Positions 11,301 to 42,401 of a stretch of 64,000 nt of DNA are shown here, one piece after another. The notes under the pieces are model-generated. The model made no database searches and was not told the DNA's origin. It saw only the letters and a list, made by a program, of their open reading frames with translations. The DNA is taken from NCBI GenBank assembly GCA_041660065.1, contig JBAZXC010000002.1, positions 170,620 to 234,619 on the forward strand, written 5' to 3'. The translations under genes were made by a program, and so were the position numbers. Origin of the DNA: Parcubacteria group bacterium (GTDB lineage: Bacteria > Patescibacteriota > Minisyncoccia > Moranbacterales > GCA-2747515). Each line of letters begins with the position of its first letter. The first letter of the stretch is position 1.

Positions 11301-11344
11301 AATAATAAAAAATTTAACTTGTAACTTATTTAATATGACTGTCA

Positions 11345-11456
11345 TTTTTTCTTTTATATAAGCAATTACTGAAAGCCCACTTTTGTCATCCTGAATGTGT
11401 TTCAGGATCTCGCATATACGGCTTATATAGATGCTGAAACACGTTCAGCATGACAT
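11345..11456. repeat. ~115-bp intergenic repeat element copy 1 (two hairpins: TCCTGAA..TTCAGGA and ATGCTGAA..TTCAGCAT)
   Basis: Near-identical to 56149..56280 (second copy has a 22-nt insertion in hairpin 2 loop). Confidence 0.7.
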
Positions 11457-16698: not shown

Positions 16699-16756
16699 AT
16701 TTATTCACAAAACTGTCTGATCGGTCTGATCTACCCAGATTATCTTGCAGCTTGCA

Positions 16757-16790
16757 GGAGCAGGTTTTATAACCTGCTCCTTTCGTTTTT
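16757..16790 (+). terminator. intrinsic terminator GGAGCAGGTT-TTAT-AACCTGCTCC + TTTCGTTTTT
   Basis: 10-bp perfect stem plus T-run; near-identical copy at 17892..17926. Confidence 0.75.
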
Positions 16791-17856: not shown

Positions 17857-17891
17857 TTACAACACTAAAGAGCTTGACTTGCAATCTTGCA

Positions 17892-17926
17892 GGAGCAGGT
17901 TTTATAACCTGCTTCTTTTCATTTTT
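17892..17926 (+). terminator. intrinsic terminator, duplicate of 16757..16790
   Basis: GGAGCAGGTTTTATAACCTGCTTC + T-run; ~45 nt including 5' flank CTTGCA..CTTGCAGGAGCAGG shared with first copy. Confidence 0.7.
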
Positions 17927-24538: not shown

Positions 24539-25525
24539 TTATTGTAGTATTAATTTATAATACCGAAACTTATTGATTGTGAGGATGTTATTATGATCCC
24601 GCACATGTCGACCGACATCACTATAAAAAATCACTAAACGTTCGCGATCCTTTTTGACGTACTCGATGATCTTTTCTGTCTCGAAAATTTCATGGATAAA
24701 GCCGTTTCCTTTTGCACATTCCAATCGTCGCTTGTATGACTGCGCATTTCTATCTGACAGATCCCCACCATCAACGATATACAGGTCATAACCGGAGAAA
24801 TTATCTCGGAAATTATCAACGATGTATTCCAGACGATTTTTGGGAAGCCTGTACAAAAATCTGTTTCCCTTTTTGTTCTTCATCTGCACCTGCTGAATGA
24901 GGATCCGCCGGTCATTCATGATTGAGAAGCCGATTGTCATAACATGCGTACCTTTATAGTGCACGAGAAAACCAAATATCCCATCCAAGAATGTGCGACT
25001 GTGTTTGGAATAACCATATTCATTATAGCCTGTAGTAAAATCAAGTCTTACAGAAAAATCCTTTGGTAGACCACGAAAAACAAATTCCGTCAGATGATCA
25101 TATGCATCGACCACTTCATTCCAAACATTACGACCACCACCATACAACCACATGGAACTCTGGATCTTCCGCACAAGATTATACCGATCATCACATTTAA
25201 AAAGATCCTCGACAGTAGTATGCATGTATCCAGATGAATATTCGATCTTGCACAACTCATCAAATGTAAAATGCTCAAATACCTCAAGCGGTAATTGATA
25301 AAAATTGCGCCAGAATTGAAAATCCTCGGGATCGCACAGATGATCAGCGATCAATTCTCGCTTACCTGCCAATTTTTTGGAAATATTGCGCAATGCGTAG
25401 ATCGGTTCTTTCCACCGCGGACTCACCTTGCGCAAACAACCTTTTACCTGTCCCAATTCAATGCCCACCATGAAAATCACCTCCTTTGTATATTTTGACA
25501 CATCTCTTTTATTTTTAAATAACAA
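24539..25525 (-). CDS. hypothetical protein
   Basis: ORF only. Confidence 0.4.
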   Translation of the reverse strand: MLFKNKRDVSKYTKEVIFMVGIELGQVKGCLRKVSPRWKEPIYALRNISKKLAGKRELIADHLCDPEDFQFWRNFYQLPLEVFEHFTFDELCKIEYSSGYMHTTVEDLFKCDDRYNLVRKIQSSMWLYGGGRNVWNEVVDAYDHLTEFVFRGLPKDFSVRLDFTTGYNEYGYSKHSRTFLDGIFGFLVHYKGTHVMTIGFSIMNDRRILIQQVQMKNKKGNRFLYRLPKNRLEYIVDNFRDNFSGYDLYIVDGGDLSDRNAQSYKRRLECAKGNGFIHEIFETEKIIEYVKKDRERLVIFYSDVGRHVRDHNNILTINKFRYYKLILQ

Positions 25526-25621: not shown

Positions 25622-26134
25622 TTGGTTATGAACACAATTCAAGAAAATAAAAATCCCACACAAGAGGACTCAACATTGGAAAGTCTTGCATTCAAAGCCA
25701 CACGACACATCGGGTCAACGACATCACTGATCATCCACTCGATTTTTTTCGTGGGAATTTTTGCGTTGCAGTGGCTCAATTTTACTTTTGATCAGATCAT
25801 GCTCATCCTCACAACCGTTGTATCTTTAGAAGCGATCTATCTCGCCATATTCATCCAGATGACCGTCAACCGCCACGCAAGCGAACTCGCTGATATCAGT
25901 GAAGATGTGGAGGATATTAGCGAGGATGTGGAAGAGATTTCCAAAGATATTGATGATATCCAGGAAGATGTGGAGGATATTAGCGAGGATGTGGAAGAGA
26001 TTGGCGAAGAAATGGAAAAGGATGATGAAAAAGATGATGCAAAACACAACAGCAGTCAACAACGGATCAATCACATCGAAAGCATCCTCAAAGAACTCCT
26101 CGCCGAGGTTCGTGAGCTAAAGGATAAGAAATAA
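25622..26134 (+). CDS. 2-TM membrane protein with acidic 21-aa tandem repeat (EDVEDISEDVEEIS..)
   Basis: 63-nt tandem DNA repeat at ~25901..26026; 3' terminal 68 nt duplicated at 27917..27984. Confidence 0.55.
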   Translation: MVMNTIQENKNPTQEDSTLESLAFKATRHIGSTTSLIIHSIFFVGIFALQWLNFTFDQIMLILTTVVSLEAIYLAIFIQMTVNRHASELADISEDVEDISEDVEEISKDIDDIQEDVEDISEDVEEIGEEMEKDDEKDDAKHNSSQQRINHIESILKELLAEVRELKDKK

Positions 26135-26194
26135 AATAAAAAACGACGATGCAACTGACACCGTCGTTAAAATTCTTCTGTGGATTATCTTGAT

Positions 26195-26788
26195 TTAGAG
26201 ATCCGATTTAAACTGCAAGAGCATTTCCAATAAACTGCGCTCTTTTAGGAGAATCTCAATAAAAAAGATCTCCGGTAAAGATGTGTACGGACTTTCTACT
26301 CCCACTTCATGAAATATGAATGAGGTATTTGTTGAAAGCAAAGCCTCTTGCACCAGTGTATTTTGCCGGATCTTCTCATGAATGAATGTGACAATGAGCA
26401 TACGGTGTTCAATTGAGTTATAGATGATCTGCTCATCTCCCCAATAAACAAAACGCTTTTCCCCTTTTTGAATGGAATGCGTGATTTCCCTTCCAGCTCT
26501 CAGTGCATCCATCCCATCCATCGCAAATATTTCTTCTCGCTCGGCAATATCCGCAAATTTAATGCCCTGCAATGGACTCTCAACGGATGGAAAAATGTGT
26601 GACCCAATTGCAAATGGTGTTGTGGCAGGATTTGACAAGATTTGCCCTCTCCAATCCTCCGAGCGATATCGGATGTTCAAACTGTCCTTGTTTTTTTGAA
26701 CCATAAGATCACCTATTCCTTGTTTTATGATATATTTTGTTAAAATAACGGTAAAAATCAGCATATAGTATTTTGTATACCATGTCAA
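26195..26788 (-). CDS. NADAR (DUF1768/YbiA-like) domain protein
   Basis: C-terminal MLIVTFIHEKIRQNTLVQEALLSTNTSFIFHEVGVESPY resembles NADAR consensus. Confidence 0.45.
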   Translation of the reverse strand: MTWYTKYYMLIFTVILTKYIIKQGIGDLMVQKNKDSLNIRYRSEDWRGQILSNPATTPFAIGSHIFPSVESPLQGIKFADIAEREEIFAMDGMDALRAGREITHSIQKGEKRFVYWGDEQIIYNSIEHRMLIVTFIHEKIRQNTLVQEALLSTNTSFIFHEVGVESPYTSLPEIFFIEILLKERSLLEMLLQFKSDL

Positions 26789-26953
26789 TCAACACGACCA
26801 TTGTGATCACAATAGCATGAATTTTAGTCAAAAATTTATCTTTTTTGCACCCCGCGCACAAAGACTTCCGACAGAGCAGAAATTCTCACGAAAAAAGATC
26901 ACTCTCATTGTGAGGATGACCTTTTCTTTTTTTGAAAACTTTTCTGTGATGAC

Positions 26954-27190
26954 CTATTTTGTGCTGATGCCAAAAAATTTGTACAGCATGCAATAGCCAG
27001 TCGCTGCGGTCAGAAGCAACATTACGCCAATAATATACCCGACAACCTGCCCCCAGCCAGCAAATGCGCTGTACGCAAAATACATCACCACCAAACCCGC
27101 GATCGCGCGAAAAACACGATCCATTGTGCCCTCGTTGACCTGCATATGATTATAAATTAACAAATTATCTTTGTATTGTAGTACCTCCAC
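26954..27190 (-). CDS. DUF2892 (YgaP-like) small membrane protein
   Basis: RVFRAIAGLVVMYFAYSAFAGWGQVVGYIIGVMLLLTAATGYCMLY pattern. Confidence 0.5.
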   Translation of the reverse strand: MEVLQYKDNLLIYNHMQVNEGTMDRVFRAIAGLVVMYFAYSAFAGWGQVVGYIIGVMLLLTAATGYCMLYKFFGISTK

Positions 27191-27353
27191 AATCCCCCCT
27201 TTATTTCACCCATTCGTCATTGCGATGAACAGAGAGAAGACTCTTGCCCTTTTATCTCTTTGACAGACCACATATAAACTGCTATGCTAACGCGTTACCA
27301 AAAAAGTCATTTAACAATCACACAAACACATTCCCGTATAGGAGGACTCAGAG

Positions 27354-27854
27354 ATGCCCGCGTACGAACCGACCGGACCGTATATCTTACAGAGCGGTCC
27401 AAAAAAAGGCCTGAGCATTGAGCAACTCATGTTCAGTAATTACGAATGGCTCGTCTTCATGAAAAATTTTCTCAATGAAAAAAGCCCCGACGCCAAAAAC
27501 CAGTTACACAAACACATTGAGTGGGTACTTGGTCAAGGAAGTCGCCGCTCGCCCACGATGATTTGCCCCCAATGTGGCAAAAGACCGGTATCCTATTTTT
27601 CCTATCTCGGATCCGAACAATTTGGCTATTCGATGGGCGCTACATACACATGCTGTAATGATGAGGACTGCATACACCGATTGAGTACCCGGGGCATTGA
27701 AAAAAAACCGGCTTTTTTATCGATCGACCACTCATCGATCATACATTTCAAATCAAAGCGTGATCAAAAGAAAGTCGTAGACATTCTCAAAAAATGTTAT
27801 GAGTTGCCCAAACGGCTGACTAAAGAGACATTGTTCGCGTTCTTTAACAAGTAA
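27354..27854 (+). CDS. hypothetical protein with zinc-ribbon (CPQC...CC..C)
   Basis: Strong SD AGGAGG; ORF. Confidence 0.45.
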   Translation: MPAYEPTGPYILQSGPKKGLSIEQLMFSNYEWLVFMKNFLNEKSPDAKNQLHKHIEWVLGQGSRRSPTMICPQCGKRPVSYFSYLGSEQFGYSMGATYTCCNDEDCIHRLSTRGIEKKPAFLSIDHSSIIHFKSKRDQKKVVDILKKCYELPKRLTKETLFAFFNK

Positions 27855-27913
27855 CGCAAAACAAAAAGAGCCTGTATCATTCAGACTCTTTTTTCTTTTT
27901 CTCCTATTTATTC

Positions 27914-27984
27914 ATCTCAATCACATCGAAAGCATCCTCAAAGAACTCGTCGTCGAGGTCCGCGAGCTAAAGGATAAGAAATGA
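27914..27984 (+). pseudogene. remnant of the 3' end of gene 25622..26134 (encodes ..INHIESILKELVVEVRELKDKK*)
   Basis: 68 nt with 5 mismatches vs 26067..26134; no start codon upstream. Confidence 0.55.
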
Positions 27985-28048
27985 AAAAATCGGTCTTTCT
28001 CTCCACAAAGAGAAAGACCGATTGCACGTGATTACGTACTGACAATAT

Positions 28049-28972
28049 TTATTGCTTGCACATTTCCCACACATCTGGATATTGTTGCATCGTCTGAGCC
28101 GTAGCGAGATTCCACGAATCAGTATTACACTGTATTTCTCGATCATCTTTATGCAAAGATTCGAGATAGTTGCGATACAGCTCATAGAATTGTCGCTCTC
28201 GGATCGATCCGGGATTAAACCGATGGACTGCGTCAGGATGACTATTCATCAAACCGGCAAAATTACTCGTGGCGACGTTTATCAATTCCTGTTGCACAAT
28301 GACTTTGGGATTCTCAGCAATTTTGAGCGCATATTCATACCTTTCCGTCGTCAATGGCATTTTCCCCAGTGTGGAAACCTGCTCATCATACACCGCCTGC
28401 TGTGTTGGGATCGTGGTCCAAAATGGAGTAATGTAAAATCCACGAATAGGAAACATCGCCAAGAAAATCAAACCTGCGCCACAAAATACACCACAAAAAG
28501 GAACAATGAAACCAATGAACTCAAGGTTGTTTAACTTTCTCACAACAAACATGCAACAAGAAAGAACGGCAAAAAAGTACATCAGCATAAAATATGACGA
28601 CGGAGAAACACCTGCATACATGGACGGTACATGTCTGACCCTAAAAATACACATGACCGCAATAAGATTAACAATCCAAAGAAGCAGCAGCATAGCACCT
28701 ATTTTGCTATATAACGGCTTCGCAAGCCTAAAACTCCTTTCCTTCTTATCGAGATATATCCCATCTTTGAGTATAATACTCTTGCACTTTTTACACTTGT
28801 CCTCATTCCATTCCAAGTCTATCGACTTGATGTGTTTACCACATCTAGGACAACGGCGAAAATCATGCATTGCCTCAGAATTTCCTTCTGCTTTTACCAA
28901 GTATTCTTTGGCAAAGCAACGTCTCCACAGATCAACAACATAGTTTTTCAACGAACTGACAAGCTGTGCCAT
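28049..28972 (-). CDS. hypothetical membrane protein with N-terminal zinc ribbon
   Basis: CPRCGK...CKKCK then 4 TM helices; terminator hairpin 27991..28020 downstream. Confidence 0.45.
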   Translation of the reverse strand: MAQLVSSLKNYVVDLWRRCFAKEYLVKAEGNSEAMHDFRRCPRCGKHIKSIDLEWNEDKCKKCKSIILKDGIYLDKKERSFRLAKPLYSKIGAMLLLLWIVNLIAVMCIFRVRHVPSMYAGVSPSSYFMLMYFFAVLSCCMFVVRKLNNLEFIGFIVPFCGVFCGAGLIFLAMFPIRGFYITPFWTTIPTQQAVYDEQVSTLGKMPLTTERYEYALKIAENPKVIVQQELINVATSNFAGLMNSHPDAVHRFNPGSIRERQFYELYRNYLESLHKDDREIQCNTDSWNLATAQTMQQYPDVWEMCKQ

Positions 28973-29193: not shown

Positions 29194-30312
29194 TTATTTG
29201 AAATGGATCACCGTGATCTCCGGACGTCCTGATGTGCGCATTGCCGGACCCCATGTGCCGACACCCCGCGATGTATAGATCGAGAAATCTCCCTCACGCG
29301 TCAGTCCATTCGCATAGCGACCATAGATCGCACGCGTGATCAGTTGAAATGGAAATAATTGCCCGCGGTGCGTGTGCCCCGCCAATTGCACATCAAAACC
29401 CAGATCCTTGGCAGTACGTGCACTAGAGGGATCATGATACAGGAGGATGTTTGGTTTGTTGAGGTCGAGATCCTGCATATTGTGGATTGTTTCTGCGATG
29501 TCTTTTTTCTCGCCACGCTCGGGATAACTCACGCCGACGATCTGCATTCCATCCACAGATACCACAGCATCATCCAAAGTTTGGATCGCTGTTTGTGCAA
29601 GCGTATCGGTCACCATATCCAGACCGAGATATGTCTCATGATTACCCGTAATAAAATATACACCCTGCGGTGCTGTCATATGTCGCAACGGATCGATGAG
29701 TTCTGCCAGCGCGCCATCCATCCCGTCAAAGAGATCCCCCGTGATAAACACCACGTCAGGATGTTCCTTATTGACCGCAGTCACTACCTGCGTCAAAAAA
29801 CGCGCGCCATATGTGTGACCGAGGTGCACATCTGATAATTGCACGACCGTTTTGTCTTTCCATGTCTCAGGCAGATCTTTGACCTCTAGTGTGATGTGTG
29901 TGACTGTGGGATGAAATGCGCACCATATACCATACCCGGAGTACACGAGAGCGACAATGAGAAAAGAGGTTGCCACAAATTTTTCATTCATGCCACATGC
30001 AAACATGTGACAGATCAGAACAATACCCCACACGATGATACACACTATGATCACATTCCACCCGATGGCAAGCAGTAATCCCGAGATCCCATAAAAAGCT
30101 CTCGTAAAAATATTCTCCGCATAGTGCGCGAGGATCGATGCAATGATAAAGCTCACACCACACACAAACAATCCCACCACCAACCACATTTTGTATTGCG
30201 GATCACTGATGCTAAAAAATCTGACCAAAGAAATATAAATAAAATAGTTCCCGCCAAAAAGGATCGCGATAAAAATGACCAAAAATATCATGAAGCCCCA
30301 CACCATATGCAT
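29194..30312 (-). CDS. membrane-anchored calcineurin-like metallophosphoesterase
   Basis: DVHLGH, GDLFD, GNHE, GHTHRG phosphoesterase motifs; N-terminal TM helices. Confidence 0.8.
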   Translation of the reverse strand: MHMVWGFMIFLVIFIAILFGGNYFIYISLVRFFSISDPQYKMWLVVGLFVCGVSFIIASILAHYAENIFTRAFYGISGLLLAIGWNVIIVCIIVWGIVLICHMFACGMNEKFVATSFLIVALVYSGYGIWCAFHPTVTHITLEVKDLPETWKDKTVVQLSDVHLGHTYGARFLTQVVTAVNKEHPDVVFITGDLFDGMDGALAELIDPLRHMTAPQGVYFITGNHETYLGLDMVTDTLAQTAIQTLDDAVVSVDGMQIVGVSYPERGEKKDIAETIHNMQDLDLNKPNILLYHDPSSARTAKDLGFDVQLAGHTHRGQLFPFQLITRAIYGRYANGLTREGDFSIYTSRGVGTWGPAMRTSGRPEITVIHFK

Positions 30313-32033: not shown

Positions 32034-32067
32034 GTAACATAATTATACGGCCGTATGATTATGTGAC
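32034..32067. repeat. 34-bp palindrome R3 (overlaps stop codon of PaaX-like gene, upstream of TPR gene)
   Basis: GTAACATAATTATACGGCCGTATGATTATGTGAC. Confidence 0.85.
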
Positions 32068-32625
32068 TTTTCTTTTAAAGAAATGTTTTTTAAGTTCTGA
32101 TGCATTATCGATGGTTGATGCTGTAATTATACGCACATATTTATCTGCATTGTATAGACGAACGAGATCCAATATCGTTTTTTCGCACGGATATGGTGAT
32201 ACAAAGACGCTTTGTTGCAATTGTTTGAATTCCAACACATAAAGATGTTTGCGCAAAATATCACGAAAGACACGATCATCCTCCGGTATATCAAAGATCA
32301 CAATGCGCCACTTCTTATCCCATTTTTTAGGTTTGACAAATGTTGCAATCGATCCAAATAAGTCCAACTGGTGCGCAATCCTTTTTCCTTGCGCAGTCAA
32401 AACCAGCATAAAAGATCCATCTGGCATCTTGCGTTCTTTGATAAGCTTTTCTTGTGAAAGTCGTTTGAGCGATCGCGCAAAACTGCGACGATTAATTTTT
32501 TGCCAATCTTTGTGCATAACGGAAAGCGTAGCAAAATACTGACCTGGGGAATGGGATAATCCCAGTGCGACACCGCCAAACAACAAAACGAGAATCTTTT
32601 TTTGTAACTTCCCTATTTTATACAT
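32059..32625 (-). CDS. PaaX-family transcriptional regulator-like protein (Cas2-like C-terminal domain)
   Basis: WRIVIFDIPE...LRKHLYVLEFKQLQQSVFVS motif of PaaX_C/Cas2-like fold; palindrome R4 begins 13 nt upstream of start codon. Confidence 0.6.
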   Translation of the reverse strand: MYKIGKLQKKILVLLFGGVALGLSHSPGQYFATLSVMHKDWQKINRRSFARSLKRLSQEKLIKERKMPDGSFMLVLTAQGKRIAHQLDLFGSIATFVKPKKWDKKWRIVIFDIPEDDRVFRDILRKHLYVLEFKQLQQSVFVSPYPCEKTILDLVRLYNADKYVRIITASTIDNASELKKHFFKRKVT

Positions 32626-32979: not shown

Positions 32980-34158
32980 TTATTTTTTAGGTTTTAATAA
33001 CAATAGTAATTCTTCTGATTTCACTCGTGATGCTTTGATTTTATTATTTTTTAGTTTATTGTTTCCTCCTAGAGTACTAAATTTACCAACAATGACATCA
33101 TGAGAATGTTGTCTACTGGACTTATCAATGTCAAAATATTTTCTTGATATCTCCTTAACTAGTTCACCAGAAAGTCCATTGCTACATTTTCCTTTTGGAA
33201 ACGTGAAAATTACTGACACTTTTTTTTGTGCAAGCACACATAAAAGATCATTAAGTGCTTTTTTTGACTGACTTAAATTACTAAAATGTGACTGTGGTCT
33301 CTCCGTAATGTCTGGGTAGCGTCCTACGCCGGATACTGGTCCACATGTGCCTCGTGCGATTGTTTCTAATACGTGATAAAACCTACTATAATGCACACCG
33401 GAATATGGCGGATCAATAAAGACAAGATCGCCCTCTTTAACTTTTGTTTTGATAAAATGGATTGCATCATCCACATATGTCTTTCCTTTTACTTTTGCGT
33501 GTTTTTCAGAAATTTCCTTAAGGGTAGTCTTGCATACATGTATGATATCTCTATGCCATGCGTCATAGAGAAACTTTCCAGCAGTTTCTGTTGGTTGAAA
33601 AGGTTGAGCTGTGTGCCCCGGAGCTGCTATCGTTCGACTTACAGCATCAATAAGCGCTGCAAGACATGCTGTTTTTTCTGTACTGTTTTTTGGTAAATAT
33701 TTTATAAGATAATCAATCGTCAACGCTTGTAATGGACTGAAATAGTGACCGCCATATGCATTCCAGATTGGACCAATACTTGATTTTTTTTCACATAGTT
33801 TTCGTGATTTTTGAACTGTTTTTCTAAGTACACTGATTTTACAATCCTGCAACTTCACTGCTTCATTAAAAAATGTGGAGGATTTTATCTTTGCATTTGC
33901 TTCTTCAATCCATTTATTTTCCAGTGACACAGGATTTAACTTTTTGTCTCGCTCAATAATAGAACCAGACAAAATCTTACCATACATTTGCAAATCAGAA
34001 GCTAAAACAGGCACATTGAAACTTTGTGCAACATGATGCACAACCGATCCAGCACCACAAAAAGGATCCACAAATCTTTTTGCAGTTGGCACGGTTTTTT
34101 TTATTAGTTCACCCAATCCATTATTTAGCATGAACCGCTTTGAGCCCATGTATTTCAT
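32980..34158 (-). CDS. D12-class N6-adenine DNA methyltransferase (Dam-like) with ~100-aa C-terminal extension
   Basis: DPFCGAGS (motif I) and VFIDPPYSG (motif IV, DPPY). Confidence 0.75.
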   Translation of the reverse strand: MKYMGSKRFMLNNGLGELIKKTVPTAKRFVDPFCGAGSVVHHVAQSFNVPVLASDLQMYGKILSGSIIERDKKLNPVSLENKWIEEANAKIKSSTFFNEAVKLQDCKISVLRKTVQKSRKLCEKKSSIGPIWNAYGGHYFSPLQALTIDYLIKYLPKNSTEKTACLAALIDAVSRTIAAPGHTAQPFQPTETAGKFLYDAWHRDIIHVCKTTLKEISEKHAKVKGKTYVDDAIHFIKTKVKEGDLVFIDPPYSGVHYSRFYHVLETIARGTCGPVSGVGRYPDITERPQSHFSNLSQSKKALNDLLCVLAQKKVSVIFTFPKGKCSNGLSGELVKEISRKYFDIDKSSRQHSHDVIVGKFSTLGGNNKLKNNKIKASRVKSEELLLLLKPKK

Positions 34159-34177
34159 ATTTTTGTTTTTTAACTTC

Positions 34178-35335
34178 CTATAGTCCAGATTTTTCTTTCA
34201 GTTCCCTGTACAGAGCTGATGGACCAGTGCCACCCGGAGCATATCTGTCCCTATTAAAATCATCATCTTGCAAATCTATCCGATTAAATATTTCCAAAAA
34301 CTCCTCCTTTGTGACAATATCGCCAACTTTATCAAAACTGAGATAGGCATCTTTTAAAAATCGCATCAAGGCAATAAACCCCGTTGATTTGTTTAATATC
34401 ATATTTTGTTGAACATCGTTCCATGCAGTTGGCCACTTTTGTTGCACTGCAAAAAAATAATTCCACAATATTTGAGCAATATTTGCATCTTCTTCTTCAA
34501 TAAACATATTTCTCAAAAAAAGTTTTTTTTCATCATCACCATTAACTTTATTTGGTATTGAATCTCTTTTATAAATATCCCTATCTTTCATTGCACAAAT
34601 ATTATTTCCTGAGATATACCGAATCAACGAATCAACAAATGTTGCTTGGGTTATTGTCTCAAATCTATCCGTAGCTACACCAAGGATTTTAATTTTACCA
34701 AAAAATGGACTACCCTCCTTCTGATCTAGTGCTCTAGCAATATTATGAGCAGTTTTTTGTGGACTTCTAGTTTTTGTATACTCAAATAAATCTGCAACAA
34801 GTGATTTATTTACCTTTGTGTGGCTTTTATTTATTGTAGCAAAGATAATTGCTTGGTCTTCAATATCCATATCAACAAATATCGTCACATTTAGAGTGAA
34901 ATCTTCATTGTTCAAATCAAGTCCACCCTCTCTCAAACCAGCTAGTCTATGTTGACCATCTAGTATTTTTGCTACATTATTATTTCTGCGAATCATTAAC
35001 TTTCCACTACTTTCATCATAATTAATGTTGCAAATTGCAGAATCGCCAACATTTTCAAACTGACTAATTTCTACAATGATACCAGTTGGAAATGTTGCAT
35101 CTACAAGCTGAACATAGCTCGCTATTTCCTTCACTCTATTTTTTGATAATAATCTTTGAATTCCAATATATTTTTCTAGTTCAGTCGAGTTTGTTTCCAA
35201 ATGTCTTATATCTGCATAAGATATTTCCAGTAAATCTTTATAACCAATTGATGCAACATAAAAAACTCCAACGGGTTGTTTCACCTGAATGCAACTAACT
35301 TCAATATAATTTTCATTATTATTTAAAGTATTCAT
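34178..35335 (-). CDS. DGQHR-domain protein (DndB-like, ParB/Srx fold)
   Basis: Literal DGQHRLAGL motif; adjacent to MTase and R-M genes. Confidence 0.7.
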   Translation of the reverse strand: MNTLNNNENYIEVSCIQVKQPVGVFYVASIGYKDLLEISYADIRHLETNSTELEKYIGIQRLLSKNRVKEIASYVQLVDATFPTGIIVEISQFENVGDSAICNINYDESSGKLMIRRNNNVAKILDGQHRLAGLREGGLDLNNEDFTLNVTIFVDMDIEDQAIIFATINKSHTKVNKSLVADLFEYTKTRSPQKTAHNIARALDQKEGSPFFGKIKILGVATDRFETITQATFVDSLIRYISGNNICAMKDRDIYKRDSIPNKVNGDDEKKLFLRNMFIEEEDANIAQILWNYFFAVQQKWPTAWNDVQQNMILNKSTGFIALMRFLKDAYLSFDKVGDIVTKEEFLEIFNRIDLQDDDFNRDRYAPGGTGPSALYRELKEKSGL

Positions 35336-35850
35336 GATAATTGATTCATAATATCTCTTTGACTCTCCTTATTTTCTTGATCAGGATCAAGATTTTGGGA
35401 TTGACGATAGTGTGCATAATATATCGTACCAAGAGCATAAAGAACAAATATCCCCGATATTAATCCTATATATTGTGTTTTAGTTGGAACAACTGTAGTG
35501 GCCATATAGCCTACAGCAGAAAATATAATTACAACCCAGGAAATCATATATAAGATTTCTGACAAATTTACTGGTTTTTTTGAATAACCTCTCATCATGT
35601 GAATAGCAGAGCCTAATAATGCTGCGCTATATATAAAAAATTCTCCATTTTTCCAGAGTTGATTTATGCTAAAATTATCATCGGTTATGAGTACGTAAAA
35701 AAAAGTGAGCCAAATTGGTAAAAATGAAAAAAATATTGTTACAAAAATGAAAAACACCGACTCCTTATGATCGTCCCAAGCCTGTGTTTCTTTAATTATC
35801 TTAAATATATTCATAATAATTAATTTGCTATTGTAGCATTCAATATTCAA
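35332..35850 (-). CDS. small integral membrane protein (4 TM)
   Basis: ORF, hydrophobic helices; inside defense gene cluster. Confidence 0.4.
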   Translation of the reverse strand: MNIECYNSKLIIMNIFKIIKETQAWDDHKESVFFIFVTIFFSFLPIWLTFFYVLITDDNFSINQLWKNGEFFIYSAALLGSAIHMMRGYSKKPVNLSEILYMISWVVIIFSAVGYMATTVVPTKTQYIGLISGIFVLYALGTIYYAHYRQSQNLDPDQENKESQRDIMNQLS

Positions 35851-35877
35851 ATATGCAAATGACGATTAATATTCACT

Positions 35878-38355
35878 TTATTCACTCCACAATTTAGCGA
35901 TCACATCTTTTGTTTTTTGTTCGTATATGTCGATGAGTTTTTTTGCTGATTCAACCAAAACACGTTCTGCTTCAATTTTTTCTACAATTAGTTTTTGATT
36001 TATTTTTGATGGCAAAGAAATTTTGATGGATCTAATAATTGGCATATTCAAACCACCTCTTTGATTTTCTCCGTTAATGTTTCTTATTTCTTGATATTTT
36101 TCTTTCAAAGAATATAATAAAAATTCTGAGATCAATTTATTTTCATCTGGATTTATAGAAACCAACGATTGATTACAAGCAGCTTCAGTTCTAAGAATGG
36201 CAATGGTCCCACGTGTCTTTCCTTGACCATTCAATGCTATCAAAACAGAGTTTTTTGGCAATAATCTAGCATTTGAATTATCTAATCCAAGCTGTGTAAT
36301 CCTACCTTCACAATCATAAATTTCCCCTCTATGGATATCACCAGAAACAAGCCACTTAATATCCCCATTATAATATTCTTTAATTGTGGATCGTGGAGTG
36401 CCTCCTGTCATGAGCGTAGAAACATCTCCAATCTTTACCTTTTTCCACTCTGGGTCAATTTCAATTTTTGGCTTCCAATTTTCTGTGATTTGTTTTGCGC
36501 CGGTGATGATTTTTTGATAGCCATCCAATTCTGCTACGATTTTTTCTTGGATTTCGAGAGGTGGAAGTGGAATTTTTGTTGATTTTAATTTTCCAAAATG
36601 TCTTTTGTACCCGTCAGATTCTATTGGATTTACTATTAAATAATAATACAAAAATTTTGGAAGCAATTTGTCATTTGTCTGCAAAATTTTAATACCATCT
36701 GCACCTTGAATAAAATTATTTTCAATATATTTAATTGCGCAGGTATGATCACCAAAAACAATCACTGGGTTTTGTACTGATATTATGGCATCTACATCAT
36801 CGCTCCAACCAGATATATTATCTTGAGATTGATCAATGACAGGATATCGACCATCACTTTTTATATCTTCTTTTTTTAATTTTTTTGGTGGAACAATCGT
36901 AAGTATTAAGTCTTCAATTTTTATCATTGGCCATTTTACATTTGTATAATCTACAGATTCAAAATAGCGATCGCCACTCAAATTATAATCTCCACTCTCC
37001 ACAATTTTAGATTTTTTAACGGCTGTTGCTATAGATTCCGGATCAAGTCCGGAATGACATGATGAAGGCATCGTTTGATTTTCTTTCCATGCATTTAAAA
37101 TTTCCACTGCACATGACAAATCATTTTTATCACTTGGTCTGCGCTGTGCGCCGAGATCAAAACCATCATTGGCGATTTTGACAAAAAGAATTTCGTCATT
37201 CGTTTCCTTTTTGGTCTTGTCAAAAAAGAGGATTGACGTCTTCACACCTGCATACGGATTAAAAACGCCACTCGGCAAACTTACCACAGCCCAAAGCCCT
37301 GCATCTTCTACAAGCTTCTCACGAATCGCTTTATGCGCACGAGCTGCCTGAAAAATCACGCCCTCTGGTACAATCACGCCACATCGCCCACGATCAGTCA
37401 GATGACGAATCATATAATTGAGAAAAAGCACTTCAGTCGCTCCTGTGTCCATCTGCAATTCTTCTGCCACTGCCGCACGATCGATCTTGCCCGCGAATGG
37501 TGGATTTGCCAATATGATATCCCATTTTGTCGTTTCCCCTTGCGTATCCACAAGTGAATTGCGTCGCTTAATCGTCGCATGTGGCAATTTATGAAAGTAT
37601 AAATTCATGAGACCGAATTTGATCATATCCGGATCACTGTCAAACCCCGTGAATGCTTGATTTTCCAAAAATTTCTGTTGTTTTCCTGTGAGGATATCCA
37701 TCGGAAATTTTCCCGCTTTTTTAAAATCATCAGTTGTGTACTTCTGTTTCAAATGATCCAATGCCGCAACAAGAAATCCGCCCGTACCACAGGCCGGATC
37801 ACAAATACTTTCTTCTGCCTTTGGATCGATGACGTCTACAATAAATTTGATAATATGTCTTGGTGTGCGGAACTGTCCTCCTGTGCCCGCTGATGCGATA
37901 CTGGAAAGCAAATATTCATAAAGATCGCCAAAAAGATCCGATCGTGTTGTTTTTTCTTCAGATTCTAGATCTGCCATCAATTCTTCGATTTTATGCACGA
38001 CTGTACGCAGTGCCGGTCTGGCAAAAAGTTTCACATGTGCTTTGTTGTAAAGCATCTTCACTGTTGGATTCGTTGTTTTTTCTGCAATTTTTTCAAAGGC
38101 ATCTCCCAAGTGTCCGAAAAGAGCATCTGCATTGAGACTGAGAATATTATCCCACTGATAAATTGCCAGCTCCCCACTTAAAACCGGTTTATATTTTTTG
38201 TCCAACAGTTTTTGCTCTTGATCATGCTTGTGTAGTTCGCGTAAAAAAATAATATAAATCATGAGTTCAATCACCGCCGTATGATTGGTAAGACCGCCAG
38301 CCCAAATGACATCCATAATGCTATTGATCTTGCTACGAAATTCTTGTAATGACAT
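35878..38355 (-). CDS. hsdMS: Type I R-M methyltransferase fused to specificity subunit (HsdM-HsdS single polypeptide, two TRDs)
   Basis: HsdM N-domain, motif I DPACGTGGF, motif IV LANPPFAG; C-terminal half has two target-recognition domains each ending in conserved LPPLEIQEKIVAELD / LPSKINQKLIVEKIE. Confidence 0.85.
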   Translation of the reverse strand: MSLQEFRSKINSIMDVIWAGGLTNHTAVIELMIYIIFLRELHKHDQEQKLLDKKYKPVLSGELAIYQWDNILSLNADALFGHLGDAFEKIAEKTTNPTVKMLYNKAHVKLFARPALRTVVHKIEELMADLESEEKTTRSDLFGDLYEYLLSSIASAGTGGQFRTPRHIIKFIVDVIDPKAEESICDPACGTGGFLVAALDHLKQKYTTDDFKKAGKFPMDILTGKQQKFLENQAFTGFDSDPDMIKFGLMNLYFHKLPHATIKRRNSLVDTQGETTKWDIILANPPFAGKIDRAAVAEELQMDTGATEVLFLNYMIRHLTDRGRCGVIVPEGVIFQAARAHKAIREKLVEDAGLWAVVSLPSGVFNPYAGVKTSILFFDKTKKETNDEILFVKIANDGFDLGAQRRPSDKNDLSCAVEILNAWKENQTMPSSCHSGLDPESIATAVKKSKIVESGDYNLSGDRYFESVDYTNVKWPMIKIEDLILTIVPPKKLKKEDIKSDGRYPVIDQSQDNISGWSDDVDAIISVQNPVIVFGDHTCAIKYIENNFIQGADGIKILQTNDKLLPKFLYYYLIVNPIESDGYKRHFGKLKSTKIPLPPLEIQEKIVAELDGYQKIITGAKQITENWKPKIEIDPEWKKVKIGDVSTLMTGGTPRSTIKEYYNGDIKWLVSGDIHRGEIYDCEGRITQLGLDNSNARLLPKNSVLIALNGQGKTRGTIAILRTEAACNQSLVSINPDENKLISEFLLYSLKEKYQEIRNINGENQRGGLNMPIIRSIKISLPSKINQKLIVEKIEAERVLVESAKKLIDIYEQKTKDVIAKLWSE

Positions 38356-38358
38356 TTT

Positions 38359-40779
38359 TTATATTTTTAATATTTTACTTGTGGCAATATCTTCCGCCAT
38401 TTCGATCAGTTCTTCCTCTTTAAATCGTTCTAACCATTCACCCGGTCTATACACGTTAAATGGTGGCTCTGATAAAAATGACACATTTCTCTCCTGTGCA
38501 GATCGCACCACTTTCTCACGCAATTCATCGTTGGTCGTCATCTTGGCAAAAATCAGTCGTGACATCAATGTGCGCTCTTGATCCGCACCTGGCTCTATAC
38601 CGTATTTTTGTACCATATCCTCCATCCATTGATCTCTCTGCGAATCACGCGTTGGAAGCTCTTCCTTGCCCAGTGCACTGAGTACAAAATTACGAATGGA
38701 TACAATTACACCAAAACCTTCTTGCAATTTATCTTCTGAAAAATATTCTTTTGGTTTGTTAAATACGTGTTCATCCAAAAATAGACTCAACTCTGCCTCA
38801 CGCTCTTCATCTTCTGCCATCTTGAGAACTTCCCCATTTTCTGCGACAATTTCTTGAATTGCTTTGGTCCATGCGGATTGATACATGTTTTTGTCCACTG
38901 CATCACCATCGGGACCAACCGTCATTTTATCCCTGGTAAGCACAGCATCATCATCGTTGCTCACAATTGGTGTAAATGGCGACGGCGTTTCAGTTCCACC
39001 ATCGCCAATAACTCCCTCACCTCTGCCACCTGTCACCGTAGCCCCCTTTAATATTAATGGGGTTTTGAGTGGCGCTTCCCAATCATATTTTTCTTCAAAG
39101 TATTCCACAACACCGCAAAAATCAAAAATCGTAAAAAACTCTTTTTTAAAATCTTTACCATCATGGTGAAACGTGTACAAACGTGTGCCGCGTCCCTTAA
39201 TTTGCTGATATGAGGTTGTTTCAAAAATCGGTCGTGCAAGTACGATATTGAGAACTTCCGGACAGTCAAAACCTGTGGTGAGCATATCTACTGATACCGC
39301 AACACGCATACGTTGATTTTCTGGATCCTTGAATTCTTTGGCGATTTGTTGTGCATTCATCACACTACTCGTAATTGTTTTGGCAAATTGTCCACCATAT
39401 GCCGGCATCATCTCATTGAGAATTTTTTCCAACTTCAGTGCATGCCGCTGTGATACCGCAAAAATAATCGACTTGCCAATTTCTCCATCAGGTGCTTTAT
39501 TGGCATTATCGAGAAATTCCTGCATCATCGTGCGGTTCGTTTTTTCCAAATAGACCTTCTTTTCCAAATCTCGAATTGTAAAGGATTCGCCCTTTGCCTC
39601 GGATACTTCCAAACCCTCTGGACTAAGTGCCTTTTGCGTAAGCACCGTGTTCATTTTGTGAAATCGTGGACCGACAAGAAATGGCCCCTGTGAATCGCCA
39701 ATGCCATCTTGAATAGTATAACGATATGTTGCCACACCATCCGCACATCCAAAAAACTTATATGTATCTCTCTGAAGACGTTTTTCAAATGCACGCGGAT
39801 CATCTATTTGTAATTGTGATTCATCAATATTTTTGAGAAAGTCTTTCGGTGTGGCAGTGAGACCAACTTTTGTCGCTCCGTAAAAACGATCTGTTGCAGC
39901 ACGTGCTTGTGCAGAATATATACTGCGGTGTGCCTCATCATGAATAATTAAATCAAAATACCCCGGTGAAAAATAATCTTCGCCATTCTTAATCATGCTT
40001 TGAATTGTTGCCACCACAACATTTGCGCCAACAATATTATTGCGTGCACTTCCCCAAAATGTGGCAATGGATGATAAATCACCTAAAATTGGTTCGAATG
40101 CCCCCTTGGTTTGTGTAGCAAGTGTAATACGGTCTACAAGAAAGAGAACATTTTGCGCCTGGTGTGTTTCTAAAAATTTGCGAATAAGCGCAGCCGCAAG
40201 TCCAGTCTTACCCGTCCCCGTTGCCATCTCCAAAAGAAATGCTCTTTTGCCGGCATCATATCCTTCGGCAATTGTATTGATTGCTTCTACTTGATAATGG
40301 CGCAATGAAAAATTACTCGGATCAACTCTTTGTAAATAGTCTGGTGTGATCGGATTGCGCGTAAGTGGCACTACATTACCCATCGTATCAGCATTTCTTT
40401 TGCGCTCAAGATCCCGTTGTGTATAAAATTCATTTACTTGAATCGCATCTCCTTTGGTAATATCCCAAAAATAAATAACGTGATCATTTGCCAAATAAAT
40501 ATATTGGATTTTTCCTTTATACTGAGCATCCACATAATTTAACGCCTGTTGTTTGGCGCTATACGGATCAATTTCTGGTGCCTTTGCTTCAATAAGCGCT
40601 AATGGTTGTCCAGATGAGTTTTTCAAAATATAATCCGATCGTCCTGCAACGCCATGATCTTCAAAAATAACTTGTTGAAAACTTTCAATATCCCATTTGG
40701 CATCCCGCAATTTTCTATCAATAACAACACGTGAAAAAGCTTCACTCATAGATATAACATCATAATATAACTCTTTCAT
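38359..40779 (-). CDS. hsdR: Type I restriction enzyme R subunit
   Basis: N-terminal PD-(D/E)XK (DYIL...EAK), helicase motif I ATGTGKT, motif II DEAH; start set at MKELYY. Confidence 0.85.
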   Translation of the reverse strand: MKELYYDVISMSEAFSRVVIDRKLRDAKWDIESFQQVIFEDHGVAGRSDYILKNSSGQPLALIEAKAPEIDPYSAKQQALNYVDAQYKGKIQYIYLANDHVIYFWDITKGDAIQVNEFYTQRDLERKRNADTMGNVVPLTRNPITPDYLQRVDPSNFSLRHYQVEAINTIAEGYDAGKRAFLLEMATGTGKTGLAAALIRKFLETHQAQNVLFLVDRITLATQTKGAFEPILGDLSSIATFWGSARNNIVGANVVVATIQSMIKNGEDYFSPGYFDLIIHDEAHRSIYSAQARAATDRFYGATKVGLTATPKDFLKNIDESQLQIDDPRAFEKRLQRDTYKFFGCADGVATYRYTIQDGIGDSQGPFLVGPRFHKMNTVLTQKALSPEGLEVSEAKGESFTIRDLEKKVYLEKTNRTMMQEFLDNANKAPDGEIGKSIIFAVSQRHALKLEKILNEMMPAYGGQFAKTITSSVMNAQQIAKEFKDPENQRMRVAVSVDMLTTGFDCPEVLNIVLARPIFETTSYQQIKGRGTRLYTFHHDGKDFKKEFFTIFDFCGVVEYFEEKYDWEAPLKTPLILKGATVTGGRGEGVIGDGGTETPSPFTPIVSNDDDAVLTRDKMTVGPDGDAVDKNMYQSAWTKAIQEIVAENGEVLKMAEDEEREAELSLFLDEHVFNKPKEYFSEDKLQEGFGVIVSIRNFVLSALGKEELPTRDSQRDQWMEDMVQKYGIEPGADQERTLMSRLIFAKMTTNDELREKVVRSAQERNVSFLSEPPFNVYRPGEWLERFKEEELIEMAEDIATSKILKI

Positions 40780-40887
40780 TCTACCCCCTATCCCACCAAA
40801 AATCAAAAAAATGGCTTTTTTATGGTGTTTTTTTTGGTGTTGCTATTTATTTCATTTTATCATGATGCTCTTTTGATAACATATACC

Positions 40888-40985
40888 AGATTGCTACACC
40901 CAACTCAAAGAGGGCTCGCAATGACAATGGGAGATTGCTACACCCACTCAAGGAGAACTCGCGATTGGCGATGGGAGATCACTTA
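40888..40985. repeat. 44-bp tandem repeat, 2.2 copies (AGATTGCTACACCCAACTCAAAGAGGGCTCGCAATGACAATGGG)
   Basis: Read from sequence upstream of hsdR. Confidence 0.6.
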
Positions 40986-41128
40986 CTAAGAGATACGAGG
41001 AGTGGCTATGTGTGTATTGAAATACACTTTTTACATGGCACATTTCACACATATTGAGATTTTTGCTATGATATCTATAAATAATTGCACCATCACCATT
41101 AGATCATCATACTATTGAGGAGGATTTC

Positions 41129-41284
41129 ATGGCTGGACACGGAACCAACAAAACAGGCAACAAAAAAAGCAATGGACGGCGAGCCGGAATCAAGACAAAA
41201 GGTCGTGCCAAACAAATGCCACCCACAATCGCTGCCAAAAGAGAGCAGGAGAAGCGTGAAAGAAGCAGAAATAACCGCTATTAG
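41129..41284 (+). CDS. 51-aa lysine/arginine-rich small protein (module copy 1)
   Basis: MAGHGTNKTGNKKSNGRRAGIKTKGRAKQMPPTIAAKREQEKRERSRNNRY; SD GAGGAGG; paralog at 45332..45487 with >90% DNA identity over first 80 nt. Confidence 0.45.
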   Translation: MAGHGTNKTGNKKSNGRRAGIKTKGRAKQMPPTIAAKREQEKRERSRNNRY

Positions 41285-41311
41285 TCGTTAAAACGACCAA
41301 CAACTCCCCAT

Positions 41312-41348
41312 GGAGACAGTGTGCAACATCACCTGTCTCCCTTTTTTA
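41312..41348 (+). terminator. intrinsic terminator GGAGACAG..CTGTCTCC + T-run (conserved in module copy 2 at ~45515..45550)
   Basis: Read from sequence. Confidence 0.6.
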
Positions 41349-41441
41349 ATGTGTTGCATTTTTATCAATTTTGTGTTAGGATGGCACGTCGTGTACATTT
41401 AACAATTTCCTAAACAAACCCTACATCACGGAGGAATACCT

Positions 41442-41732
41442 ATGCAGAGCATCACATCACGTGACATTATCAGCACAAAGTACACCATCATAGATGGCAA
41501 ATCAGTCATCCTCATCTTGCTTGTGAAGTTGCCCCTGGTCAGACTACCTCTTGAACGAACTACATGGCTTGTTGACAAATCTGCACCGACCAATAGCGTT
41601 GAAATCTCAGAAGAGCCCAATCAAGGAACCGCAGAATGTGATTTTACCATTGTAGGTGACACGATGGAAACATTGCGCGCATTTGGACATCAGATTCTCA
41701 CCGACTCATTTAATGAAATATTGTGGAGATAA
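41442..41732 (+). CDS. 96-aa hypothetical protein (module copy 1)
   Basis: Paralog of 45647..45937 (~35% aa identity, shared C-terminal ..FARQILTD.F); own SD and terminator. Confidence 0.45.
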   Translation: MQSITSRDIISTKYTIIDGKSVILILLVKLPLVRLPLERTTWLVDKSAPTNSVEISEEPNQGTAECDFTIVGDTMETLRAFGHQILTDSFNEILWR

Positions 41733-41959
41733 CCTGGACTCTCCCCTATCGCCACAACCGACGACATGTCTATACATGTTGTCGGTTTTTATTTTTTATT
41801 AATTTATGTTAATTGTCTTTTTTTAATAATGTATCACTGTACGCCCCCCCTTGCATGCTCATGATAACAATTATTATTACTCCTTGACTAATTTTTGAAT
41901 ATAAAAAAGCGTGACCCTCATTAAGTCACGCCTACTTTGATATTTGCAGAGATTTCTGC

Positions 41960-42298
41960 TCAACTTTTTTTACTTGCCGCTTCCAATAATGCACCTACCA
42001 GGATCGCAGCACCGACACCAACTGCCACTTTTGCTACTTTACCCATAGGCTTTTTTGGAGCATCTTGCGGATAATCTTGCGGTTCCACATCATATGCTAG
42101 GCCAGCAGTAAAAAAACCTTCTTTTCTTTTTTTTGTTCGACCGCACCTAGGGCATTGATGATATGTGAACCCATCAGTATCGCCACATGTTCGCTCCATG
42201 TCAACAGGGATTCTTATAATCCGTGTTCTCCCATATCCAATCTCTTCCTCCGACTCATCAAAACAACTTTTACATTTCATAATATCACCCTCCTCCAA
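41960..42298 (-). CDS. zinc-ribbon protein with C-terminal TM helix
   Basis: CKSC...CPRC; C-terminal VAVGVGAAILVGALL. Confidence 0.4.
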   Translation of the reverse strand: MEEGDIMKCKSCFDESEEEIGYGRTRIIRIPVDMERTCGDTDGFTYHQCPRCGRTKKRKEGFFTAGLAYDVEPQDYPQDAPKKPMGKVAKVAVGVGAAILVGALLEAASKKS

Positions 42299-42401
42299 GT
42301 TTTGCGCTTACCTCCTAATTGCCTCTTCGACAAAGAACTTCTAATTTCATTATCAATACCATATTACAAATATGCTAATTTGTCAAGGTTCATCAATATT
42401 T

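Follow-up and report, generated by a model that had tools for sequence, protein, structure and literature searches.

The 3' end of a membrane-protein gene in a Parcubacteria group bacterium is directly repeated 1850 nt downstream as a start-less relic, and three small genes lie between the two copies. Our first choice of explanation, to which we give a probability of roughly 45%, is that the second copy is a dead fragment of the gene, left at the breakpoint of a local rearrangement that preserved orientation and proceeded by segmental duplication and then loss. We infer this path from the repeat itself and from the gene orders of relatives, and regard a single crossover of the Campbell type as its main rival. 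The three genes appear to be residents of the neighbourhood, not imported cargo.

Results

The window, by which we mean the whole 64,000-nt stretch of contig JBAZXC010000002.1 (assembly GCA_041660065.1) that was analysed, contains an intact gene, here called D (25622..26134, + strand), that encodes a DUF1003-like membrane/coiled-coil protein and matches PF06210 with E = 7e-6, a score slightly below the gathering score. Its end at 26134 stands as given in the initial annotation; the start differs, NCBI placing it at the ATG at 25628 (168 aa, WC819_03455). Positions 26067-26139 and 27917-27989 form a direct repeat of 73 nt with 92% identity and a spacing of 1850 nt, with 1782 nt of DNA between the copies. 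Of the 68 nt that run through the stop codon, 63 match, and the first 32 are identical, which bears out the earlier statement of a second copy of the gene's final 68 nt (26067-26134), with five mismatches, at 27917-27984. Copy 1 (26067..26139, + strand) is the functional 3' end of D, reading INHIESILKELLAEVRELKDKK and a stop, plus an A-run. Copy 2 (27917..27989, + strand) lies between two convergent terminators and reads, in frame, LNHIESILKELVVEVRELKDKK and a stop; no open reading frame initiated by ATG, GTG or TTG covers it on the + strand, so that its description as start-less, in frame and stop-ended also holds.

All five differences fall within the right-hand 36 nt of the repeat (post-hoc P = 0.036). 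From copy 1 to copy 2, two of them alter the protein, CTC>GTC (Leu>Val) and GCC>GTC (Ala>Val), and three are silent, GTT>GTC and CGT>CGC being synonymous and TAA>TGA exchanging one stop for another, which gives mismatched bases of C, C, T, T and A in copy 1 versus G, T, C, C and G in copy 2. When the differences are polarised with three outgroups, both amino-acid changes are placed on copy 2, and the CGT and TAA changes, both silent, on copy 1, a pattern that would be consistent with relaxed constraint on the relic. Simulated neutral decay keeps the frame and the stop with two conservative changes at P ~0.06-0.15, a hint that the divergence may have arisen when the two copies still coded for protein.

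Beyond the stop codon the copies have only the A-run in common, which in each case is the T-tract of a convergent gene's terminator, and the hairpins behind the two copies (26142-26168 versus 27988-28023) are unrelated. A 24-mer from the repeat, with up to three mismatches allowed, matched at the two copies only and in 0 of 100 shuffles; searched against metagenome contigs, it gave two chance hits, both in TctC-like genes of high GC content in which the same peptide, IESILKEL, is encoded. The block between the copies has no homology to the body or the upstream region of D beyond chance-level 19-mers, and the intergenic spacers from 23 to 33 kb hold no further gene relics, just a palindromic motif. 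The internal 21-nt tandem repeats of D, encoding acidic heptads (EDVEDIS...), occupy 25891..26037 on the + strand and lie outside the duplication.

Gene N, the first between the copies (26195..26788, - strand), is a NADAR-like (Phage_30_3) gene whose match to PF08010 (E = 3e-11) exceeds the cut-off; gene callers place its start at 26764, for a product of 189 aa, or later, for one of 169 aa (WC819_03460). N alone has no match in a sequence search of the PDB, and a profile of 20 N homologs matches E. coli YbiA, the founder of the NADAR family (2B3W), with E = 1.5e-6; PF08719 is also present in one homolog. The homologs are 55-70% identical, and the organisms named for them, in the few sources that name any, are Patescibacteria, Nomurabacteria or KSB1. 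N ends in a hairpin terminator (26142..26168, - strand) whose T-tract is the A-run after the stop codon of D. Gene Y (26954..27190, - strand) encodes a small YgaP-like_TM / DUF2892 membrane protein (PF11127, E = 6e-19) that is 63% identical to a homolog from the same neighbourhood in a relative (contig L012). The initial annotation had recognised N and Y as a NADAR-like gene and a DUF2892 membrane protein, and these database matches uphold both identities. It had also named the third gene, Z (27354..27854, + strand; WC819_03470), a zinc-ribbon protein. Z is a Cys-rich protein of 166 aa with no Pfam or PHROG family, its own family amounts to only 6 clusters, with homologs on contigs L012, L013, L014, L015 and L017, and a structure model (pLDDT 50) was unusable. 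The cysteines (CPQC...CC...C) are invariant, as a zinc ribbon would have them, and the assignment remains plausible but unproven. A hairpin followed by a T-run (27863..27893) terminates Z, and relatives have a hairpin at the same position.

To the left of D lies a gene for a 328-aa protein (24539..25525, - strand) that is divergent from D and has no family and no PDB match in a sequence search. To the right of the relic, a perfect 15/16-bp hairpin (27988..28023, - strand) terminates a gene for a 307-aa membrane protein (28049..28972, - strand; WC819_03475), which has a zinc-ribbon-like CxxC pair at its N-terminus and for which no close homolog was found. It is followed by a metallophosphoesterase gene (Met; 29194..30312, - strand) that belongs to the resident neighbourhood.

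The nearest relatives carry N, Y and Z in this same neighbourhood, at 57-85% amino-acid identity. Contigs L012, L013 and L015 group Z, Y, the metallophosphoesterase, a PaaX-like gene and a 123-aa gene; on L017, N, the 123-aa gene and Z fall within 2.2 kb (2.5 kb with a nitroreductase gene included), and on L016 N adjoins the PaaX-like gene. The L017 contig is part of GCA_038208115.1, the genome that also carries the closest D. Gene order is nonetheless permuted between these neighbourhoods with the strand of each gene kept: L012 reads Met(-), 123(+), Z(+), Y(-), PaaX(-), as compared with 123(+), Y(-), Z(+), Met(-), PaaX(-) in the window; L017, once flipped, reads N(-), 123(+), Z(+), versus 123(+), ..., N(-), ..., Z(+) in the window; and contig L002 has D(+) followed by a 130-like gene(-), versus 130(-), ..., D(+) in the window. 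This is the pattern expected of duplication-loss or of transposition, not of inversion. In four relatives a convergent nitroreductase gene directly follows the Z terminator, so the junction between Z and the relic in the window is a derived breakpoint.

Homologs of D number in the thousands in Patescibacteria; the best foreign match is 79% identical and not syntenic. Its context differs in each of the five relatives examined, which indicates that breakpoints beside D are common; the contexts of the homologs P0002, P0004, P0005 and P0009 all differ, and none is syntenic with the window. No adjacency of D and N occurs in the contexts examined, five for D and two for N. Every relative examined lacks the relic, so the finding that the initial annotation had named as a refutation, relatives with both copies, was not made. 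A scan of GTDB genomes with the 166-aa family returned a single locus (on L015), no closer than L012. The 90% cluster of D has a single member, and a predicted chimeric empty-site allele is thus absent from the 15-billion-protein collection.

No features of a mobile element were found in or around the block. When the block and selected predicted proteins from 12 to 50 kb were scanned against Pfam and PHROG, no gene for an integrase, an excisionase or a transposase and no phage gene turned up, in line with the initial annotation, which had reported neither an integrase nor a transposase. Terminal inverted repeats are absent from the block, the repeat showed no inverted-repeat core, and scans of viral contigs for D, N, Z, the 307-aa protein and the metallophosphoesterase returned no relatives. 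A check of k-mer composition, proposed at the outset, was run: the distance of the block from the window lies at the 9th (3-mer) and 21st (4-mer) percentile of same-size segments, and its composition is typical of the window. We also considered and rejected a target-site duplication made by a transposon or insertion sequence, the repeat being 68 nt with five mismatches and there being neither terminal inverted repeats nor a transposase.

Positions 26069-27946 of the window recur without a difference in a Logan unitig (L001, SRR18595301), which independently confirms that the Z terminator joins copy 2 and that the tail of copy 1 leads into N. At 1878 nt, with 28 nt shared by its two ends, the unitig could be taken for a circle, a reading that we rejected, as a 32-nt repeat forces a unitig built at k=31 to end at precisely these points. 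The window comes from a metagenome-assembled genome, and at k=31 the k-mers of the integrated form are exactly those of an empty site (the body of D with the tail of copy 2) accompanied by a 1.85-kb circle or a strain variant, which an assembler could have wrongly joined through the 32-nt repeat. We find such an artefact scarcely credible: ordinary reads of 100-150 nt and larger assembly k-mers span the repeat, the D protein with the tail of copy 1 is identical in the NCBI and JGI records, and a circle of 1.85 kb without a replication gene would be an implausible replicon.

Discussion

In the path that we favour, a segmental (tandem) duplication would have had its left boundary 68 nt inside the 3' end of D, and the subsequent loss of redundant copies would have led adjacent gene blocks to swap order, for example from D, 307-Met, N-Y-Z to D, N-Y-Z, d'-307-Met, where d' is the boundary fragment. 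Flanked by the terminators of Z and the 307-aa gene, this fragment would then lie where transcription is silent, a location that may account for its survival. Several observations argue for duplication-loss: N, Y and Z are resident, the orders in relatives are permuted with strand kept, the composition of the block is typical, the relic sits at the synteny breakpoint on the side of Z, the contexts of D are variable, and the amino-acid changes are polarised to the relic. Others argue against it. One duplication and two deletions are needed, versus one step for a Campbell crossover; the 7% difference between the copies must postdate the event, with no indel; frame and stop are kept with two conservative residue changes; and the clustering of the differences in the right-hand 36 nt is not predicted.

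Campbell-type integration, or homology-facilitated illegitimate recombination, leaves a homologous segment directly duplicated around the inserted DNA. Here, a circular 1.85-kb molecule carrying a D 3' end and N-Y-Z would have recombined once with the resident 3' end, regenerating D and displacing its old end; the circle might have come from a sibling strain in which D adjoins N, or have been looped out, and the crossover could have been made by RecA within the 32 identical nt or else by a recombinase that is unlinked. About 32 nt of perfect identity is close to the minimum length for RecA, and the flanking direct repeats offer just such a block. A single event of this kind yields the exact layout, with copy 1 completing the gene and copy 2 start-less; it also lets the 7% difference, silent or conservative as between two functional alleles, predate the event, and the end of homology at the stop codon is what would be expected of D ends from different contexts. 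We nevertheless judge it appreciably less likely than duplication-loss. Neither a circle nor a donor arrangement has been observed, the ends of the Logan unitig being explained by the k=31 graph; with N, Y and Z resident, the recipient must have lacked them or gained two sets; D adjoins N in no relative examined; and both amino-acid changes sit on the relic.

The initial annotation had read the repeats as flanking a three-gene insert, either a decayed element or a local duplication-insertion. The flanking copies of the gene end stand, the insertion of the three genes is supported only in part, and while the geometry fits both of the options offered, the evidence favours the local one. A decayed site-specific element, which an integrase would have placed in the 3' end of D together with its own replacement gene end before the integrase was lost, does account for a direct repeat of the target gene's 3' end that flanks the block, with one copy completing the gene. 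This is the geometry of icd / e14 / icdC in E. coli K-12 and of phage 21, prophages in the 3' end of a protein-coding gene: the intact gene runs into the element, a C-terminal pseudogene with conservative differences lies at the far end, and recombination of the copies gives a functional chimeric gene (PMC13626634). However, e14 is a 15-kb element that encodes its integrase and is excised once the SOS response has been induced, whereas the block here, at 1.8 kb, is far too small, comes with no recombinase in or near it among the scanned proteins, and consists of neighbourhood residents of typical composition without viral-contig relatives or an inverted-repeat core. We therefore hold a decayed element to be very unlikely. 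The identity of 32 nt could permit RecA to loop out the 1.85-kb block and leave an intact chimeric D, and it is a long shot that the 3' end of D serves as the attachment site of an integrase-less N/Y/Z cassette, mobile via this identity or via a remote recombinase. If it did, each move of the cassette would leave a functional chimeric gene, and genomes regarded as poor in mobile elements would have a new, minimal kind of mobilisable cassette.

Two further readings move less DNA, or other DNA. In one, just 68 nt was copied into the spacer between the terminators of Z and the 307-aa gene, perhaps by a double template switch or by gap-repair at stalled hairpins, and N-Y-Z never moved. A single event would suffice, and each copy does end at an A-run abutting a hairpin, copy 2 lying exactly between two of them; yet the left junction has no clear microhomology, the coincident synteny breakpoint relative to four relatives is left unexplained, and dispersed 68-nt duplications over 1.85 kb are uncommon, all of which makes this improbable. 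In the other, more improbable still, the right-hand side is the newcomer: a segment d'-307-Met and onwards from another lineage, cut 68 nt inside its own D, would have been joined illegitimately downstream of Z. The metallophosphoesterase alone among the neighbouring proteins looked up has a homolog of ~91% identity (P0200) from another population, the best foreign homologs of every other measured gene being at most 85% identical; its 4-mer composition lies at the 92nd percentile of distance, and the nitroreductase gene, the ancestral downstream partner of Z, is missing. Against this, the metallophosphoesterase and its adjoining zinc-ribbon gene also occur in the neighbourhood on L012 and L015, and the 307-aa protein has no close homolog.

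A start-less, non-coding copy of a gene's 3' end near that gene is also the layout of a diversity-generating retroelement (DGR), in which copy 2 would be the template repeat and copy 1 the variable repeat of the target gene, and the window does contain a genuine DGR at 57.8-60.5 kb. The mismatches between our copies are not adenine-specific on either strand, which refutes this reading and leaves it a negligible probability; the reverse transcriptase, moreover, is not adjacent, lying 30 kb away with its own template repeat unrelated to D. In the genuine DGR the adenine pattern is present.

Returning to duplication followed by loss, pseudogene remnants at block edges are a classic by-product of duplication-random loss (PMC5745709). 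The likeness to the present case extends to an altered order with orientation kept and to a fragment of a duplicated gene at the block boundary. Differences are that the process is best described in animal mitochondria, while we deal with a bacterial chromosome, a single remnant and no sighting of the duplicated intermediate.

For annotation, the locus is a caution that the duplication of a gene end around a few genes resembles an att footprint and need not mean a mobile element, and that a 32-nt repeat breaks k=31 assemblies at such a block, so that a unitig with matching ends may pass for a circle. Most likely, the scar is real but ordinary, in a part of a Parcubacteria (CPR) genome where small accessory genes are prone to shuffling. 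It would then be a clean, datable scar of small-scale change in gene order in a streamlined CPR genome, and suggests that small accessory genes here are reshuffled by orientation-keeping events rather than by inversion.

A duplicated gene end between two terminators

The DUF1003-like gene D (25622–26134, + strand; NCBI start at the ATG at 25628) lies on a 307,481-nt contig of a metagenome-assembled Parcubacteria-group (CPR) genome (locus tags WC819_034xx). Its product combines two predicted membrane helices with an acidic repeat region of 21-nt period and, at the C-terminus, the motif HIESILKELLxEVRELKDKK, which the family conserves strongly. The terminal 68 nt of D (copy 1, 26067–26134) recur 1850 nt downstream at 27917–27984 (copy 2), with 63 of 68 positions matching and the 5′-most 32 nt identical; in a search with a 24-mer of the repeat allowing up to three mismatches the two copies were the sole matches, and shuffled sequences gave none. 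The duplication described in the initial annotation is therefore real and well above chance, and its account of copy 2 as a start-less relic also stands, since this copy translates in frame up to a stop and no ORF opened by a start codon was found over it. Copy 2 is located between two terminator hairpins, one belonging to the 166-aa gene Z (27863–27893) and one to the convergent 307-aa gene (27988–28023), and therefore in a transcriptional dead zone. Beyond the stop codon the copies have only an A-run in common, which at each copy doubles as the T-tract of the terminator belonging to a convergent gene; the two hairpins are unrelated to each other. No D relic was found in the relatives examined, nor any other gene relic in the local spacers.

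A Logan unitig (run SRR18595301, 1878 nt), identical to window positions 26069–27946, confirms the junction between the Z terminator and copy 2. Its ends have 28 nt in common and could be mistaken for a circle, a reading we rejected: its first 31-mer is the earliest one containing the first mismatch of copy 1 and its final 31-mer the last one containing the base preceding copy 2, so that its ends are precisely those that a 32-nt exact repeat imposes on a k=31 graph. The unitig is uninformative on circularity, as the integrated form and an empty site plus circle have the same k-mers at k=31 and only repeat-spanning reads discriminate between them. An assembly artefact is very improbable because the repeat is so short.

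Copies 1 and 2 are identical at 63/69 positions, compared with 51/69 for copy 1 and the nearest foreign D (contig L002), and their common ancestor is therefore much more recent than the split from that relative. Polarising the differences with three outgroups placed the two amino-acid changes on the relic, namely Ala>Val and a Leu>Val at a site that is Leu or Ile elsewhere, and the silent CGT and TAA changes on the functional copy, with no polarity for the GTT/GTC difference; this distribution fits relaxed constraint on the relic. Against this, an intact frame and no more than two amino-acid changes are expected from five random substitutions in only about 6–15% of cases, and the differences all lie in the right-hand 36 nt (post-hoc P = 0.036). 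The mildness of the changes and their clustering hint either that two alleles accumulated these differences as coding sequences or that the left half has been partly homogenised. Five sites are too few for the relaxed-constraint argument or the still-coding one to be decisive.

The intervening genes are residents of the neighbourhood

Three genes are present between the copies, as initially annotated. N (26195–26788, −; Pfam Phage_30_3) yields a profile of 20 homologs that matches E. coli YbiA, the founding NADAR protein; Y (26954–27190, −) is YgaP-like_TM/DUF2892; and Z (27354–27854, +) encodes 166 aa with invariant CPQC...CC...C cysteines, in no described family, its own family amounting to only six sequence clusters among 5.8 billion. 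The evidence is against this block being foreign or mobile. Scanned with Pfam and PHROG, the block and predicted proteins chosen from 12–50 kb showed no integrase or transposase, in agreement with the initial annotation, and no phage structural gene; the block has no terminal inverted repeats, and none of D, N, Z, the 307-aa protein and the metallophosphoesterase had a relative among viral contigs. Its k-mer composition is not atypical of the window, lying nearer to the average than most equal-size segments (9th percentile of distance for 3-mers, 21st for 4-mers).

The most telling evidence against a foreign block is the residency of its homologs in the nearest relatives. Z (64–67% identity), Y (63%), the metallophosphoesterase (57–62%) and a PaaX-like gene (82–85%), with a 123-aa gene, lie within a few kb in contigs L012, L013 and L015. 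In L017, a contig of GCA_038208115.1, the genome also holding the closest D homolog, N (61–65%), the 123-aa gene, Z (58%) and a nitroreductase gene all fall within 2.5 kb, and in L016 N adjoins the PaaX-like gene. N, Y and Z have therefore long been resident in this neighbourhood. L015 (DYDB01000001.1, 388,770 nt) is titled 'Micavibrio sp. isolate IMS_BF-2', yet its locus is syntenic with L012 and the genes there have 62–85% amino-acid identity to those of this Parcubacteria MAG; its taxonomic label looks wrong.

Between genomes gene order varies and orientation is constant. The order Met(−), 123(+), Z(+), Y(−), PaaX(−) in L012, where Met is the metallophosphoesterase, compares with 123(+), Y(−), Z(+), Met(−), PaaX(−) in the window; flipped L017 reads N(−), 123(+), Z(+) against 123(+), N(−), Z(+); and in L002 D(+) precedes a 130-like gene(−), where in the window the 130-aa gene(−) precedes D(+). 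The neighbours of D differ in 5/5 relatives examined (loci on L002, L004–L009 and the P0009 contig), and the gene 3′ of D is convergent in all four with strand information (L002, L004, L008 and the P0009 contig). In L004–L006 the DUF1003-like gene is divergently paired with a YgaP-like gene. Four relatives have a convergent nitroreductase gene directly after the Z terminator where the window has the relic and the 307-aa gene (28049–28972, −), which makes the relic's left edge a derived breakpoint of synteny. Among foreign D homologs the best match has 79% identity and lies in no syntenic context, a GTDB scan found one, distant, locus, and all but one of the 90% clusters of neighbouring proteins looked up hold only this contig. 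Scanning metagenome DNA with the repeat gave chance matches only; exact 24-nt matches at L010 681–704 and L011 3058–3081 are coincidental and fall in TctC-like genes of high GC content whose products contain the same peptide, IESILKEL.

Other features of the window

The metallophosphoesterase (29194–30312, −) is the sole neighbouring protein looked up with a ~91% homolog in another population (P0200; three contigs, the longest 95,572 nt), and among the D, N and Z homologs listed none was reported on a contig of that length. The 4-mer distance of its gene is at the 92nd percentile, and together these may indicate recent exchange. A palindromic intergenic motif, ACATAAT-NNN-ACGGCCGT-NNN-ATTATGT, occurs at 31177, 31305, 32037, 32641, 32855 and 46133 (six observed, zero expected); it mostly flanks the gene of the PaaX-like regulator (32059–32625, −) and is absent near the D relic. 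Short matches to the spacers carrying it recur in intergenic spacers of L012 and L015, and the motif is probably an operator or REP-like palindrome.

A defence-type island (32980–44545) contains a D12 adenine methylase, a DndB-like/DGQHR protein, a type I restriction-modification system (HsdM-S fusion, 35878–38355; HsdR, 38359–40806) and a RhuM/Fic protein (43559–44545); 34.1–35.1 kb is compositionally the most deviant part of the whole window. Direct repeats of 230 nt (41118–41347 and 45321–45550, 84% identity) appear to be paralogous small genes, those of 120 nt (11322–11441 and 56126–56245, 84%) lie upstream of a DUF2207 gene and a DUF4178 gene, and pairs of 40–45 nt (16751–16790 and 17886–17925; 53301–53345 and 53796–53840) look terminator-like. 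Diversity-generating retroelements (DGRs) are a known kind of element, common in CPR, and a complete one spans 57830–60455, with a reverse transcriptase (57830–58858, −; RVT_1, E = 3e-27), a bAvd-like gene (58887–59240, +), a template repeat (~59259–59374) and a variable repeat (~59692–59807) forming the 3′ end of the target gene (59685–60455, −). All mismatches in its core repeat are at template adenines on the coding strand; the D copies were rejected as a DGR repeat pair.

Origin of the relic

We put at about 80% the probability that the relic is a dead piece of sequence that records local rearrangement of resident genes, not a mobile-element footprint. In layout the feature most resembles E. 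coli icd/e14/icdC, in which the intact gene runs into the element, the far end holds a C-terminal pseudogene with conservative differences, and a functional chimera results from excision (PMC13626634). The likeness is in geometry only, as the window feature departs from an e14-type element in integrase, foreign cargo and size. The decayed integrative element initially proposed is unlikely, given a block with typical composition, no integrase among the proteins scanned and N, Y and Z resident in relatives. Import of the right-hand segment comprising the relic, the 307-aa gene and the metallophosphoesterase is suggested by the ~91% homolog that the last of these, alone among nearby genes, has in another population, and is scarcely more probable; a short template-switch copy of the 68 nt alone is also improbable, if marginally less so. 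A Campbell-type single crossover of a circular molecule carrying the D end, N, Y and Z would need one event, and the 7% difference between copies could predate it, but it requires a donor arrangement, none of which has been observed so far, and we consider it doubtful.

Duplication followed by loss comes first among the specific paths, at a little under even odds. On this path, tandem duplication of a segment whose left boundary fell 68 nt inside D, and then deletion of the redundant copies, would swap adjacent blocks with their strands unchanged, and would automatically leave a boundary fragment of D behind. Such a path matches the order-changing, strand-keeping style seen across relatives. 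Pseudogene remnants are classic in the duplication-random-loss model, and the window relic matches them (PMC5745709). On the tests that could be applied, the feature behaves as a duplication-loss scar would, and as a homologous single crossover would too. The initial annotation is partly right: the local duplication-insertion that it offered as the other option holds, and the feature is an ordinary rearrangement scar.
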